From Promethearchaeota archaeon (GTDB lineage: Archaea; Asgardarchaeota; Lokiarchaeia; Sigyniarchaeales; SOKP01), in NCBI GenBank assembly GCA_013375475.1, contig JABXKD010000067.1, positions 1 to 21,383 of the forward strand: a stretch of DNA of 21,383 nucleotides, read 5' to 3'. Below are positions 6,361 to 17,495 of this stretch, piece after piece. The position numbers were made by a program, and so were the translations under genes. The notes below the pieces were generated by a model, which was given only the letters and a program-made list of their open reading frames with translations, ran no database searches and was not told where the DNA came from. Each line of letters opens with the position of its first letter. Position 1 is the first letter of the stretch.

Positions 6361-7470
6361 TTAGATTTTCCACTGGCCTTCTTCATAGATAACTTTGCCA
6401 TCAGCAATGATTTTTGAATCTGGAAGCGTCATATCCTTAAGAATATCCCAATGAATTGCGCAATGATTTTTTGATCCCGTTTCGGGTGGTCCTGCACCTA
6501 AAGCGCAGTGTAACGTCCCCCCTATTTTCTCATCAAATAGCATATTCTTCGTAAATTTAGTAATGCCATAATTAGTTCCGACAGCAAATTCGCCAAGCGT
6601 GTCAGCATTTTTTATACCAACTATTTCTTGTAGTAAATCTTCGGCTTTATTGGCTATAGCTTTTATCACTTTCCCGTCTTTGAATTCCAAGTAGATATTT
6701 TCGATTTCTTTTCCTTGATAGATGCCAGGATAGGTGAATCTTATATGTCCATTCACCGAATCTTCTAGAGGAGCAGTATATACCTCTCCATCGGGCAAGT
6801 TGTTATGTCCGCAGCAATTTATCCATTTTCTTCCTTTTACTGAAAGCGTTAGATCAGTATCCTCGCCTAGTACTTGAATCTTGTCTACTTTATCTAAGAT
6901 TTCTACGATTTTATCTTGCTTTTTTTCCACTTCCTTCCATTCTTTAACTGGGTCTTCCTTATCTAATTGTAGCGCTTTTCGAACAAACTCTGAGTAAGAA
7001 AATAAATCCATTTCTGCTTCTTGCGCAAAAGAATGACAAGGAAAAGGAACTATCACCCAATTTAGTTCTCCATCGGCGTATCGTTTCATGTAGGTCATCA
7101 TTAACTTAGCATTTTCGGGCGAACCTTTCACTTTAGCGATTATTTTTGGGTCAATTAATGAGAGTTTTTTCGGATTGTAATCCGCAAATATACTGATAAG
7201 GCAATCGTATTCATTAATAACTATTTTCTGGGCATCGTTAATATATAACAGTTGTTCTTCAGAGCCGTATTTATAAAGCAATTCTTGCGCTCCTTCGATC
7301 TGAGGTACTACTAGTGCGTGACCACCAGCTTTTAGAACTTCAACGTAAATCGCTTGAAATAGGCCTTCGGCAATGGAAGGCCCAACAACCGCTACTCTTT
7401 GCCCTTTCTTAACATCTAGAGCGTAATTAACTGCTAGTTTCGCTAATTTTTCATAAAATTCAGTAATCAT
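6361..7470 (-). CDS. Aminopeptidase, peptidase M29 (AmpS/AmpT) family, copy 1
   Basis: NLPDGEVYTAP, GEFAVG, FDEKIGGTLHCALG and SAIH-like CAIHWD motifs. Confidence 0.93.
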   Translation of the reverse strand: MITEFYEKLAKLAVNYALDVKKGQRVAVVGPSIAEGLFQAIYVEVLKAGGHALVVPQIEGAQELLYKYGSEEQLLYINDAQKIVINEYDCLISIFADYNPKKLSLIDPKIIAKVKGSPENAKLMMTYMKRYADGELNWVIVPFPCHSFAQEAEMDLFSYSEFVRKALQLDKEDPVKEWKEVEKKQDKIVEILDKVDKIQVLGEDTDLTLSVKGRKWINCCGHNNLPDGEVYTAPLEDSVNGHIRFTYPGIYQGKEIENIYLEFKDGKVIKAIANKAEDLLQEIVGIKNADTLGEFAVGTNYGITKFTKNMLFDEKIGGTLHCALGAGPPETGSKNHCAIHWDILKDMTLPDSKIIADGKVIYEEGQWKI

Positions 7471-7539: not shown

Positions 7540-8649
7540 TTAAATTTTCCACTGACCCTCTTCGTAAATAACTTTTCCATCTGCAATAATTTTTGATCCG
7601 GGAGGTGTCATGTCCTTAAGAATATCCCAATGAATTGCGCTTTGATTTTTTGATCCTGTTTCCGGAAATCCAGCGCCTAGTGCACAATGCATCGTACCTC
7701 CGATTTTCTCGTCAAAAGCCATATTCTTGGTAAAATCAGTTATTCCATAGTTTGTTCCGATAGCAAATTCACCAATTATATTCGCGTTTTCAATTGCTAT
7801 TATTTCGTGAAGCAGTTCTTCAGCCTTATCTGCTGTAGCTTTTGTTACTTTCCCATCTGTAAATTCTAGATAAATGTTTTCGATTTCTTTTCCTTGGTAA
7901 ATTCCAGGATAAGTGAATCTTATATGTCCATTTACAGAATTCTCCAAAGGACCTGTAGCAACCTCGCCATCAGGTAAGTTGACCTGAGCACTAGCATTAT
8001 ACCATTTTCTGCCCTTCACTGAAAACTTTAAATCTGTATCCTCACCTAAAATGTGAATAATATCAACTTCAATCAAATATTCAATCATTTTTTCTTGTTT
8101 TTTCTCCATTTCCTTCCATTCCTTAACGGGGTCTTCTTTATCTAAAAATAACGCTTTTTTAACAAATTCTGAATAAGAAAATAAATCCATGTTTGCTTCT
8201 TGCGCAAAAGAATGACAGGGATAAGGAACAACCACCCATTTCATTTCTCCGCTAGCAGCGCGGTTCATAAATATCGTTGAAGACTCTTTATTAGAAGGTG
8301 ACCCCTTGACCTTAGCGATTAATTTTGAATCTACTAAGGAGAGTTTTTTCCGATTATAATCTCCAGAAATAAAAATAAAGCAATCAAACTCCTTATCAAT
8401 CTTTTTCAAGACGTCGTCATAATAAAAAAGCTGATCTTCAGAACCATGTTTGTAACGTAATTCTTCTGTTCCTTCGATTTTGGGCATTAATAAGGGATGA
8501 CCACCGGCTTTTAGAACTTCAATGTAAATAGCTTGAAAAAGTTCTTCAGCTATCGTTGGTCCTATTATTAACACCCGTTGGCCTTTTTTAACTTCTACAG
8601 AATATTTAACTGCTAGTTTTGCTAGTTTTACATAAAAGTCACTTATCAT
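7540..8649 (-). CDS. Aminopeptidase, peptidase M29 family, copy 2
   Basis: NLPDGEV, GEFAIG, FDEKIGGTMHCALG and SAIHWD motifs. ATG at 8649 (MISDFYVKLAKLAV) aligns with copy 1 and gives the same 1110-nt length. Confidence 0.93.
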   Translation of the reverse strand: MISDFYVKLAKLAVKYSVEVKKGQRVLIIGPTIAEELFQAIYIEVLKAGGHPLLMPKIEGTEELRYKHGSEDQLFYYDDVLKKIDKEFDCFIFISGDYNRKKLSLVDSKLIAKVKGSPSNKESSTIFMNRAASGEMKWVVVPYPCHSFAQEANMDLFSYSEFVKKALFLDKEDPVKEWKEMEKKQEKMIEYLIEVDIIHILGEDTDLKFSVKGRKWYNASAQVNLPDGEVATGPLENSVNGHIRFTYPGIYQGKEIENIYLEFTDGKVTKATADKAEELLHEIIAIENANIIGEFAIGTNYGITDFTKNMAFDEKIGGTMHCALGAGFPETGSKNQSAIHWDILKDMTPPGSKIIADGKVIYEEGQWKI

Positions 8650-8810
8650 AAATTTACTATTTTTTATTGATTTAAAAACTATTTCCAAATCAATTTTAAG
8701 ATTGAAGATTCTTAGGAGTTCTGAACATTAAATTATAAATGCCCTACTTCCCTATATCAATTAATCATATATATTGATTAATAACAACTCTTATTTTGGA
8801 AAAGAAAATC

Positions 8811-14881: not shown

Positions 14882-15358
14882 ATGACAAATGTAAAAATTG
14901 TTACTACAAAAGGAGACATTAACTTTAAGTTATTCGACAACGAAGCGCCTTTAACGGTTTCGAGTTTTTTATTTTTAGCAAAAAAAGGGTTTTACGACGG
15001 GATCGTTTTCCATCGAGTAATAGATAATTTCATGATCCAAGGAGGTGACCCTCTTGGTAACGGTATGGGAGGGCCTACAGCAGTTGGTGTAAATTCATTT
15101 CCATTTCAAGGACGAGATATGTCGTATCCTTACGCTGACGAATTTCAATCAGGAAAAGTCTTCAATAAACCTGGTATTTTAGCAATGGCTAACGCTGGTC
15201 CGGGCACGAATGGTTCGCAGTTTTTTATTACTCACGTACCCACTCCACACTTGAACAATAAGCATACAATCTTTGGAGAAGTTACGAGTCCCGCAGATCA
15301 AGCTGTAGTAGATGCTATAAGAAAAGGAGATAAAATAAAGAAAGTTGAAATTATTTAA
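14882..15358 (+). CDS. Cyclophilin-type peptidyl-prolyl cis-trans isomerase
   Basis: [39 protein letters not shown] and [12 protein letters not shown] motifs. Confidence 0.96.
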
Positions 15359-15440: not shown

Positions 15441-15614
15441 TTAATAAGAATCTTCATCCCATTCGCCATCATTATAGTCGTCAAATTCGTTGTCATCGTC
15501 ATCATCGTCATATTCATCGTCCCAATCGTCATCATCGTCGTATTCATATTCTAAATCTACATCTTCTCTAACTTTAAATTTATTAAAAAAATTCTTATCC
15601 TCCATAATAACCAA
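15441..15614 (-). CDS. Hyper-acidic Trp-containing microprotein, copy 1 (57 aa)
   Basis: MVIMEDKNFFNKFKVREDVDLEYEYDDDDDWDDEYDDDDDDNEFDDYNDGEWDEDSY*. TTG start after GGGG (alternative ATG at 15605). Paralogous to copy 2. Confidence 0.8.
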   Translation of the reverse strand: MVIMEDKNFFNKFKVREDVDLEYEYDDDDDWDDEYDDDDDDNEFDDYNDGEWDEDSY

Positions 15615-15676
15615 CCCCTGATTTGATTATCTATGTAATTTTAATTATTTTTTTTGTTTTTTTTTAATCTATTGTA

Positions 15677-15727
15677 TATTATTTGAAATAAAAAGCACTA
15701 ATGTTTTTTAAAGATTACGATCAAAAG
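15677..15727 (-). promoter_or_regulatory. Conserved upstream block of microprotein copy 1
   Basis: 45/51 nt identical to 15932..15982; contains TATA-like CTTTAAAAA on the minus strand. Confidence 0.6.
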
Positions 15728-15732
15728 GTAAG

Positions 15733-15879
15733 TTACTCATCTTCTTCGTCCCAATCACCATCGTTATAGTCATCATAATCTTCCTCATTTTCGTCGTCCT
15801 CGTCCCAATCATCCTCATCTTCGTCTTCTTCTCTAATTTTATTTTCATTATATACACTTTCGTCCTCTATAATTACCAA
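15733..15879 (-). CDS. Hyper-acidic Trp-containing microprotein, copy 2 (48 aa)
   Basis: MVIIEDESVYNENKIREEDEDEDDWDEDDENEEDYDDYNDGDWDEEDE*. Same GGGG-TTG-GTW-ATT-ATR-GAG-GAY start context as copy 1. Confidence 0.8.
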   Translation of the reverse strand: MVIIEDESVYNENKIREEDEDEDDWDEDDENEEDYDDYNDGDWDEEDE

Positions 15880-15931
15880 CCCCAACTTTTAATCGTTTAT
15901 GTATTTTTTTTAATAATTTTAATCCTTTATC

Positions 15932-15982
15932 TATTATTTGAAATACAAATCTTGAATGTTTTTTAAAGCTTACGATCAAAAG
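15932..15982 (-). promoter_or_regulatory. Conserved upstream block of microprotein copy 2
   Basis: 45/51 nt identical to 15677..15727; lies in the divergent intergenic region before 16041. Confidence 0.6.
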
Positions 15983-16040: not shown

Positions 16041-17495
16041 ATGAGTAAAGACATTAAAGATTTAATAGACTCGGTCGACTCTGCGAACCAAGCGCACTCT
16101 GATTTAGAAATTGTGATTAAACATTTGAAAGAGGAAGTACAGCGTCTTAATTTTACAGTAAGCGAACAGAGAAAAATTATCGAAAACCAAAAATCAAAAA
16201 TTTCGAATAATAACATTCCCGAAGATATTTCCGTGTTAAAAGACTTAGTAACGGAACAACGCCAAGACATAATAAAGAAAGATAAAGATATTGAGATTCT
16301 ACAACAAACTATCACCGATATTTCTTCAGAGCTGGATAATACACAAAAGTTTGAAGACGATAACAAAGAATTGATTTATGCTAACAAAGAGATTGTCCAA
16401 TTAACGGAGGAAAACGAAAGCTATAGAAAACAAGTTGAAGACTTAAATAAGGCAATTAAGGAATTGCAGAACGGAAAAGAGGAGGTAACATATAAAGTTG
16501 GAGAAGAAAGTCCTGAACTTATAGATGCAAAAAAGCTAATTATTAAATTAACGGAAGAAAATGCAATCAATCGCGTACAAATCGAATCTTCAAGGCGTGA
16601 GATCGAAGATCTAAAAAGGAGAGAGCAAGAAAGTGAAGATATAAAAAACCAATATTTTCATGAATTAAACGAAGTAAATAAAATTCTAGACCAACTGACA
16701 TTTGATAACGATCAATATCACGAAAAAGTCAATTACCTTCAACAAAAATTAGAAGAAACAGTACGACTGCAAGAAGAACAGTTTAAAGAAGTTGATAAAA
16801 GCGCAGGCTATGAAGAAACTAATCAAAACTTATTCGATTTAGAAGTAGAGAACAATGAATTGAAAAATATAATTAGTACTAACATTATCGTTATCGAAAA
16901 CTTAAAACAACGGAATCAAGATATCGAAAATAAATTGGAGGAAAAAGCTAAATTTGAAGACCAAAAATTAGACGATCTTCGACAGAAAGCTTTAGAAAGA
17001 GACGAAGAGTTAAATACCTTAAATCTTAAATTGCAGAAGATAGAAACTGCTAATAAACAACTAAGCGATTTAATTGTAGAATTAAAAGTTCTAGAAGACA
17101 CTATAGAGGATCGCGTTGAACTTGTAACTATTCCTAAGCAAACTGTTTTTGAGAACTATCCCCCCACATTATTTTTTAAGATGTATAAAATGCTCTCTAA
17201 TGATTATAAGATGTTAATCGTGGATCAACTTATAGAAGATTTAAAGAGCGTTAATAGAGATTCTAGAACTTACGCCATAAAGATACTAAGCGCAATTAGA
17301 GGTCCTAAAATATTTGATAAATTAAAAGAACTTGTAAAAGATGAGGATTGGATTGTTAAACTTTACCTAATAAAAGCTTTACGCAATTTTGAAACTCACG
17401 AATCCGCTGAGATATTGAAAATTCTTCAAGAAGATGGAGATCCTGACGTTCGAGAAGCTGCTGTAGAAATGATCTGTAAGTTAAATATCCAATAA
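16041..17495 (+). CDS. Long coiled-coil protein with C-terminal HEAT repeats
   Basis: About 350 aa of E/K/Q/N/L-rich heptad-like sequence, then LIEDLKS.NRDSRTYAIKIL, LVKDEDWIVKLYLIKAL and LQEDGDPDVREAAVEMI. Confidence 0.85.
   Translation: MSKDIKDLIDSVDSANQAHSDLEIVIKHLKEEVQRLNFTVSEQRKIIENQKSKISNNNIPEDISVLKDLVTEQRQDIIKKDKDIEILQQTITDISSELDNTQKFEDDNKELIYANKEIVQLTEENESYRKQVEDLNKAIKELQNGKEEVTYKVGEESPELIDAKKLIIKLTEENAINRVQIESSRREIEDLKRREQESEDIKNQYFHELNEVNKILDQLTFDNDQYHEKVNYLQQKLEETVRLQEEQFKEVDKSAGYEETNQNLFDLEVENNELKNIISTNIIVIENLKQRNQDIENKLEEKAKFEDQKLDDLRQKALERDEELNTLNLKLQKIETANKQLSDLIVELKVLEDTIEDRVELVTIPKQTVFENYPPTLFFKMYKMLSNDYKMLIVDQLIEDLKSVNRDSRTYAIKILSAIRGPKIFDKLKELVKDEDWIVKLYLIKALRNFETHESAEILKILQEDGDPDVREAAVEMICKLNIQ

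Follow-up and report, generated by a model that had tools for sequence, protein, structure and literature searches.

The window analysed here, a 21,383-nucleotide (nt) contig of a Lokiarchaeal genome (Promethearchaeota archaeon, assembly GCA_013375475.1, contig JABXKD010000067.1), carries two small minus-strand genes for extremely acidic microproteins, which are tandem paralogues of one gene family. We hold it very probable that this family is real and under coding constraint. Its members share a short core, N-D-G-x-W, embedded in acidic tracts, and resemble no family known from the databases that we searched. As a tentative reading, the core may serve as a small aromatic docking element on an otherwise disordered polyanionic chain.

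Tandem genes for acidic microproteins

The genome of the window (G000; 3.92 Mb, 288 contigs, 32.5% G+C), in which the window is contig C252, encodes copy 1 at positions 15444..15605 of the minus strand (stop codon 15441-15443). The product has 54 residues from a conserved ATG, or 57 residues if a longer frame (15441-15614, minus) is read from a TTG, and the core Y-N-D-G-E-W-D lies near its C-terminus. Copy 2 lies upstream at 15736..15879 (minus; stop codon 15733-15735), has 48 residues from a TTG, or 50 in a longer frame that also begins with TTG (15733-15885, minus), and carries the core Y-N-D-G-D-W-D. A preliminary description of this DNA had reported two tandem paralogous hyper-acidic open reading frames (ORFs) with 29 Asp or Glu among 57 residues and 29 among 48; both were found and hand counts on the translations gave the same numbers. 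Over the stop-to-stop frames the Asp/Glu fraction is 0.48 in copy 1 and 0.57 in copy 2. Alignment of both copies showed that the duplicated unit spans ~270-290 nt and includes the upstream region with a 28-nt promoter box. In a tblastn search of their own genome without low-complexity filter, the two copies matched only each other (E 8e-14 and 5e-15). Two Ser-rich ORFs on the plus strand (15490-15621 and 15701-15769) mirror the runs of GAY/GAR codons and most likely do not represent genes.

The family is conserved in position among the relatives of the window's genome. A protein search revealed open frames of 55-73 residues at the equivalent position in five further members of the genus; the back-translated motif, with two mismatches at most, matched 27 of 42 genus genomes, against none for a reversed-pattern control. 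All 27 matches are small acidic ORFs which adjoin a coiled-coil/HEAT gene, a cyclophilin gene or both. The 15 motif-negative genomes were checked independently of the motif by anchoring on the cyclophilin gene, which was found in 11 of them: three loci contain an ORF with a variant core, five have nothing between the genes and three show a different neighbour. The cores of the three anchored ORFs read LNDGEWD, ENDGEWD and YNDGKWD, so that N-D-G-x-W is kept in each. Syntenic orthologues are thus present in 30 of the 42 genus genomes (27 by motif and three by cyclophilin anchor); they are 45-73 residues long and their length changes are in frame throughout.

The codons of the core point to selection on the encoded peptide. 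In the 30-member genus alignment (A1), Asn is encoded by AAT in 20 rows and AAC in 10, Gly by GGA in 15, GGC in 6, GGT in 6 and GGG in 3, and Tyr by TAT in 21 and TAC in 7. Across the nine core columns, variation within the same residue is synonymous; the Asn, Gly and Trp columns are unchanged, and the other six show 1-4 replacements each. Synonymous changes in the motif, which had been noted from the two copies of the window, are therefore found across the genus as well, where core variation is mostly synonymous. Between copy 1 and its orthologue in the nearest relative, G014, we counted 8 synonymous and 6 non-synonymous codon differences by hand; for ~19 synonymous and ~143 non-synonymous sites, these counts point to a rough ratio of non-synonymous to synonymous substitution rates (dN/dS) near 0.1. 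The frame of copy 2 likewise stays open in comparison with G014 and G044, by way of in-frame indels of 18 and 15 nt. No Rfam family fits the locus, the best being snoR28, whose 20 bits (E 0.8) fall short of the gathering score of 45.

Furthermore, each copy is preceded by expression signals. In 20 aligned upstream regions, a box of the form GTAAnnTTTAAAAA is invariant or nearly so in all 20 and usually lies 95-105 nt upstream of the start; it has the form of an archaeal transcription factor B recognition element (BRE) followed by a TATA box. Copy 1 has its BRE/TATA-like box, CTTTTGATCGTAATCTTTAAAAAACATT, at 15700..15727 (minus), ~95 nt upstream of the ATG, and the box of copy 2 lies at 15955..15982 (minus), in the divergent intergenic region which it has in common with the coiled-coil/HEAT gene. 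A GGAGG- or GGGGT-like site precedes the conserved start by 6-10 nt in 20 of 20 upstream regions, and the start is usually ATG. The corresponding Shine-Dalgarno-like AGGGGT of copy 1 (15614..15619, minus) lies 9 nt upstream of the ATG and aligns with GGAGG(T) in the orthologues. TATA-like and GGAGG-like signals were also seen in some members from other genera. Two details of the preliminary description need revision. The "M-V-I" of the supposedly conserved M-V-I-x-E-D lies upstream of the conserved ATG and is thus spacer between the ribosome-binding site and the start codon, not protein. The K-[VI]-R-E motif is kept in the closest relatives only. A role as leader peptide was rejected, as there is no same-strand gene downstream and the next gene is convergent.

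Motif anatomy and range of the family

Family products have 31-78 residues, 43-66% of which are Asp or Glu, with acidic tracts that vary greatly in length and sequence. Within the genus, alignment A1 shows an N-terminal segment M-x-[ND]-E-[DE]-L, then an acidic tract, which in 24 of 30 members contains an upstream [DE][DE]W[DE], and then the core, in which N-D-G-x-W is preceded by Tyr in 28 of 30; family-wide, Tyr or Phe usually stands before the core and Asp or Glu after it. In 17 of 30 members the last residue of the acidic tail is Tyr or Phe. The upstream Trp and C-terminal aromatic tallies, like the codon differences, are hand counts. All 30 members of A1 and all 23 of a second alignment that includes other genera (A7) have the core Trp, both being sets chosen by a Trp-containing pattern, and so do all three cyclophilin-anchored ORFs. 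The idea of a two-Trp family therefore stands for the core Trp, while the upstream Trp, in the sequence first noted as DDWD, is missing in 6 of 30 members and is common rather than universal.

AlphaFold2, run with the 30-row alignment, predicted no secondary structure (mean predicted local distance difference test score 60.7, predicted template modelling score 0.11). The products are thus probably intrinsically disordered according to the model, in line with the initial view of a hyper-acidic, disordered family. Searches for homologues at permissive thresholds were negative: at E<=10, no Pfam model matched any of the 30 + 23 members scanned and a profile search of PDB retrieved no chain, NCBIfam gave no match, and the best PHROGs match had an E of 0.27 in one of 30 members. 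These results strongly support the view that the family has no homology to known families that is detectable from sequence.

As far as found, the family is confined to one GTDB-level Lokiarchaeal family (f1). Within the order, 32 of 154 genomes contain the exact core Y-N-D-G-[DE]-W-[DE]; all of them belong to f1, and there were no control matches. For the shorter core N-D-G-[DE]-W-[DE], 49 of 135 f1 genomes gave a match, against one control match; by genus, the counts are 27/41 in g1, 1/1 in g13, 1/1 in g14, 6/6 in g15, 4/4 in g16, 1/1 in g18, 7/54 in g22 and 1/7 in g23, where the window's own genome is counted only in the total, and there was none in g12, g17, g19, g20 and g21. Beyond the window's genus, small acidic ORFs with an N-D-G-[DE]-W core were thus found in seven further genera, in other genomic contexts. 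Of 15 non-syntenic matches inspected, 13 are small acidic ORFs of 31-78 residues with unrelated contexts and several N-terminal subtypes, and two are chance matches. A second subtype within the genus, absent from the window's genome, occupies another locus (L150, G015:C122, 317-538, plus strand; L151, G057:C42, 1344-1535, plus strand); here a Lys-rich N-terminus is followed by F-G-E-x-A-G-D-L-E-E-D-W-E-D, and the G015 copy carries the unit D-N-D-G-D-W-D twice in tandem.

Outside f1, the pattern matched two of 26 genomes of the class, neither of them at an acidic ORF, and the controls gave two matches in this 161-genome search, one of them outside f1. A profile built from the 30 members matched 22 of 400 genomes of the phylum, all within f1, and 0 of the 265 outside it; the latter is a weak negative because the same profile misses known members. 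The pattern and profile searches together point to a real family, albeit of narrow range. Among 1.84 billion representative proteins the profile retrieved only nine at E<=1e-3, all of 45-63 residues, and the seven whose sequences were retrieved show the same pattern. A word-indexed protein search gave 11 matches, one of which, with 63 residues, is named "hypothetical protein" (Candidatus Lokiarchaeota archaeon, NCBI), and the ESM Atlas contains the 54-residue copy 1 sequence letter for letter. The term "unannotated" used in the preliminary description therefore applies only in part. A feature search of the ESM Atlas gave no lead, its best score of 0.81 being the level reached by shuffled proteins. 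Among genome contigs, one of 44 pattern matches, a near-identical locus, was confirmed by tblastn; none of 42 matches in viral contigs and none of 162 in metagenome contigs were confirmed, which says little because tblastn confirmation fails on short, low-complexity proteins. No fused forms were found among the longer proteins searched, which is weak evidence, and the literature searched, supplements excluded, contained no description of N-D-G-x-W microproteins and nothing pertinent on DSS1/Sem1 or on small or acidic proteins in Asgard archaea.

Further Trp-acidic ORFs in the same genome are unrelated to the family. One on contig C1 (3395-3520, plus strand) has 42 residues from an ATG and three Trp in acidic runs, lacks N-D-G-x-W, and lies convergent to the gene for deoxyhypusine synthase; within the genus (42 genomes) it was seen again in G014 (93% identity) and, weakly, in G024, and nowhere else. 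Another, on contig C111 (158656-159135, minus strand), encodes a protein of 159 residues in which the first ~40 are Trp-acidic, with three Trp, and a non-acidic part follows; it has no Pfam match. A link to polyamines was considered and dropped: one relative of the microprotein gene lies beside a putative pyruvoyl arginine decarboxylase gene, identified by eye, and the C1 ORF beside deoxyhypusine synthase, and the contexts are inconsistent.

Possible role and competing explanations

We propose, with a probability of about 45%, that the family comprises lineage-specific, polyanionic disordered proteins in which a turn flanked by Tyr and Trp docks onto a basic partner. Asn-Asp-Gly is well known for forming tight turns, and since it is invariant here the core can be read as an aromatic knob on a polyanionic thread. 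Each gene would be expressed from its own archaeal BRE/TATA-type promoter box and ribosome-binding site to yield a polyanionic chain with a single invariant element, N-D-G-[DE]-W, and scattered aromatic residues. The turn would join the Tyr or Phe before it and the Trp after it into a small hydrophobic knob, which could dock in a hydrophobic pocket ringed by basic residues, for example on nucleic-acid-binding or solenoid surfaces, while the acidic flanks would provide long-range electrostatic attraction. The microprotein could thus work on its own as a docking or decoy peptide, comparable to acidic tails that mimic nucleic acids or act as competitors. That the core would contact a protein partner rather than ions is, from the residue pattern, an assignment that we put just short of even odds. 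To a bolder extension we give little credence: N-D-G-x-W could be a portable Trp-acidic docking signal of free-standing "motif-only" proteins across a whole Lokiarchaeal lineage, read by an alpha-solenoid or a scaffold associated with the cytoskeleton, such as the coiled-coil/HEAT protein, and would then be an independent archaeal counterpart of eukaryotic W-acidic signalling (kinesin light chain-cargo, Arp2/3-WASP-A, Sem1-PCI).

Several observations weigh against this proposal. Docking itself is read from sequence anatomy. Translation of copy 2 is uncertain because an ATA (15868-15870) replaces the ATG of its orthologues, as it also does in the copy 2 orthologue of G014. The gene is dispensable, as in five genus genomes (G046, G042, G020, G005 and G009) the cyclophilin and coiled-coil/HEAT genes are adjacent with no ORF between them; G042 retains only a short acidic relic. 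In the sister-genus genome G099 (L055, ~1490-1560) the syntenic slot holds a 22-codon stop-to-stop remnant, apparently a decaying copy, which keeps Y-N-D-G-D-W-D and has no start codon. The invariance of the motif in alignments A1 and A7 is partly by construction because the search pattern demands the motif, a selection bias avoided only by the three cyclophilin-anchored ORFs. Similarity outside the core may be compositional, the acidic tracts being of low complexity. Finally, the 21 sequencing runs found are all DNA, mostly labelled marine sediment, with a few labelled subsurface, sediment or hydrothermal vent or bearing no label, and include no RNA run.

Convergent to copy 1 lies a gene for a cyclophilin-type peptidyl-prolyl isomerase (14882..15358, plus strand; PF00160, E 3.8e-44), and divergent from copy 2 the gene for a 484-residue coiled-coil/HEAT protein (16041..17495, plus strand), in which ~370 residues of coiled coil are followed by HEAT_2 repeats (PF13646, residues 395-477); both neighbours are syntenic. 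The latter has 177 homologues of 266-847 residues, with 56-100% identity in the HEAT part across the 120 matches listed; the few that are named come from a Lokiarchaeota, Promethearchaeota or Hermodarchaeota archaeon, and database names are "HEAT repeat domain-containing protein" or the mislabel SMC/SbcC. This family is far wider than that of the microprotein and is kept where the microprotein has been lost, so that the coiled-coil/HEAT protein is not dependent on it. When the microprotein was co-folded with the neighbour's HEAT domain (residues 360-484), the score was 0.02 (mark 0.32), which bears neither way on binding. Elsewhere in the genome there are four actin-family matches, in agreement with the earlier expectation of actins in this host, and one PCI-domain match (38.3 bits, in an 815-residue frame) to a model which also matches the B. 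subtilis and M. jannaschii controls. ARPC4 (PF05856) was matched neither here nor in any of 14 control genomes, so this search is uninformative. The window also contains two paralogous M29 (thermophilic aminopeptidase) genes side by side (6361-7470 and 7540-8688, both minus strand).

The main rival to the docking proposal, which we consider unlikely, is a cation-binding microprotein, whose core would form an EF-hand-like or DxDxDG-like loop for Ca2+ (or Mg2+) in a polycarboxylate chain; the protein would sense or buffer ions and might pair or dimerise by way of the Trp at loop position 8. A canonical EF-hand loop has 12 residues, with oxygen ligands at positions 1, 3, 5 and 12, Gly at 6 and a hydrophobic residue at 8, and position 4 favours residues compatible with a left-handed turn. 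Compared with this consensus, the rows of A1 have D1 in 25 of 30, D5 in 29 of 30, and N4, G6, W8 and D/E9 in all 30; some members from other genera have Asn or Asp at position 3 and Asp or Glu at position 12, one paralogue has two tandem units, and the extreme carboxylate content would fit as well. However, Tyr occupies the ligand position 3 in 28 of 30 rows, position 12 may hold S, L, F, I, D or E, AlphaFold2 predicts no flanking helices, no EF-hand, Excalibur, dockerin or TSP3 model was matched in the Pfam scan, and an invariant Trp is unnecessary for ion binding. If bulk charge were what acts, the proteins would be generic polyanions, either "Hero"-like solubilisers or chaperones for basic proteins or buffers of polyamines and cations, and the motif a minor structural or stability element. 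The high acidic content, the great variation of the acidic tracts in length and sequence, the dispensability of the gene within the genus and the occurrence of several unrelated W-acidic ORFs in the window's genome are compatible with such a role; yet it leaves unexplained the enrichment of Trp and an N-D-G-x-W that is invariant in at least eight genera with mostly synonymous core change, and because of this invariant core we regard it as rather improbable.

Two further explanations were considered. The ORFs could have arisen incidentally, from purine-rich GAY/GAR-repeat DNA, from a non-coding RNA or from a regulatory region of the neighbours, with no functional protein. Such an origin would account for the low complexity of the DNA, for the opposite strand being open as a poly-Ser frame and for the lack of an ATG in copy 2. 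It would also suit the persistence of the upstream box after loss of the ORF: GATCGTAAT...TTTAAAAA is retained beside the coiled-coil/HEAT gene in G042 (~1332-1501 of the locus) and G020 (~1977-2215), both without a microprotein ORF, so the box may serve the divergent gene too or decay slowly. Core variation that is mostly synonymous, indels that are in frame only, the conserved ribosome-binding site and ATG, the recurrence of the same peptide motif at unrelated loci in other genera and the lack of any Rfam match contradict a non-coding origin, and because of these coding signals we give it very little credence indeed. Least probable of all is a homologue or stand-alone precursor of the eukaryotic Trp-acidic motifs, namely the "A" region of WASP/N-WASP, Sem1/DSS1 and the kinesin-light-chain W-acidic motif, as had originally been suggested along with cortactin. 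Composition and the acidic context of the Trp are similar, the Asgard host has four actin-family genes and a PCI-domain match, and the divergent neighbour, a coiled coil with an alpha-solenoid, is loosely kinesin-light-chain-like. On the other hand, neither DSS1_SEM1, WH2 or another Pfam model nor a PDB chain was found at E<=10, the surroundings of the Trp differ, with G-[ED]-W-[DE] lacking the hydrophobic position of the kinesin-light-chain motif, and the acidic part comes without V or C regions. Moreover, no member was found by pattern among the 26 other class genomes or by profile among the 265 other phylum genomes, and the precursor idea is further weakened because the family was found in only one GTDB-level family and some members of the genus have lost it. 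Judging from these comparisons, the resemblance to the WASP-A, Sem1 and kinesin-light-chain motifs is compositional.

Overall, the sequences point to a real, conserved orphan microprotein family that is mildly interesting for Asgard cell biology. Small genes of Asgard archaea are easily overlooked in annotation, and this family provides a clean example, equipped with promoter and ribosome-binding site, with a sharp motif and no known relatives. If the docking signal is true, Lokiarchaea would use short-linear-motif recognition on disordered acidic chains, a style usually deemed eukaryotic; if instead the ion site is true, the family would represent a minimal EF-loop-like sensor. Either way the test is cheap, as it involves a 54-residue peptide with one Trp reporter. 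The family carries limited weight for eukaryogenesis because of its narrow range and repeated loss.

Comparison with known systems

Sem1/DSS1 is a eukaryotic acidic disordered subunit of 70-90 residues in the proteasome lid, BRCA2, TREX-2 and other complexes. Like the microproteins it is small, stand-alone, highly acidic and disordered, with few aromatic or Trp anchors in acidic runs. In contrast, the DSS1_SEM1 profile was unmatched in the 30 + 23 members at E<=10 and no PDB chain was retrieved, we know of no counterpart of the N-D-G-x-W core in DSS1, and the microprotein is limited to one Lokiarchaeal family, whereas DSS1 occurs in all eukaryotes. One source characterises Dss1 as disordered and as taking part in many complexes, including RPA (PMC6218214). 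The "A" region of WASP/N-WASP and the cortactin NtA share with the microproteins a Trp flanked by Asp or Glu in an acidic stretch. Within WASP, a large protein, the A region forms the tail and acts with the V (WH2) and C regions, whereas here the acidic peptide is the whole protein, with no WH2 match at the same threshold and no predicted helix.

In the kinesin-light-chain W-acidic motif, the Trp is followed by an acidic residue, and a hydrophobic one (L/M) stands two positions ahead of it. Both this motif and the microprotein core are short Trp/Tyr acidic motifs that could be read by an alpha-solenoid, and the divergent neighbour combines a coiled coil with HEAT repeats. However, the microprotein core is G-[EDGK]-W-[DE] and the upstream Trp stands in [DE][DEF]W[DE], neither with L or M two positions before the Trp, and the neighbour has HEAT rather than tetratricopeptide repeats. 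W-acidic and Y-acidic cargo motifs are named as classes in two sources on kinesin light chains (PMC6214655, PMC5450233). With EF-hand and DxDxDG loops, the core has in common D1, N4, D5, G6, the hydrophobic position 8 and the acidic position 9 of the 12-residue loop; it differs in the Tyr at position 3 within the genus and the variable position 12, with no helix-loop-helix predicted and no EF-hand model match.

The acidic C-terminal tails of single-strand-DNA-binding proteins often end in Tyr or Phe, and together with the acidic DNA mimics of phages they provide another parallel, since these too are polyanions with aromatic anchors and 17 of the 30 microproteins end in Tyr or Phe. Those, however, are tails of folded proteins or folded mimics. 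The microproteins have no PHROGs match and no confirmed viral relative, and unlike the phage mimics they are encoded at a chromosomal locus that is stable and syntenic.

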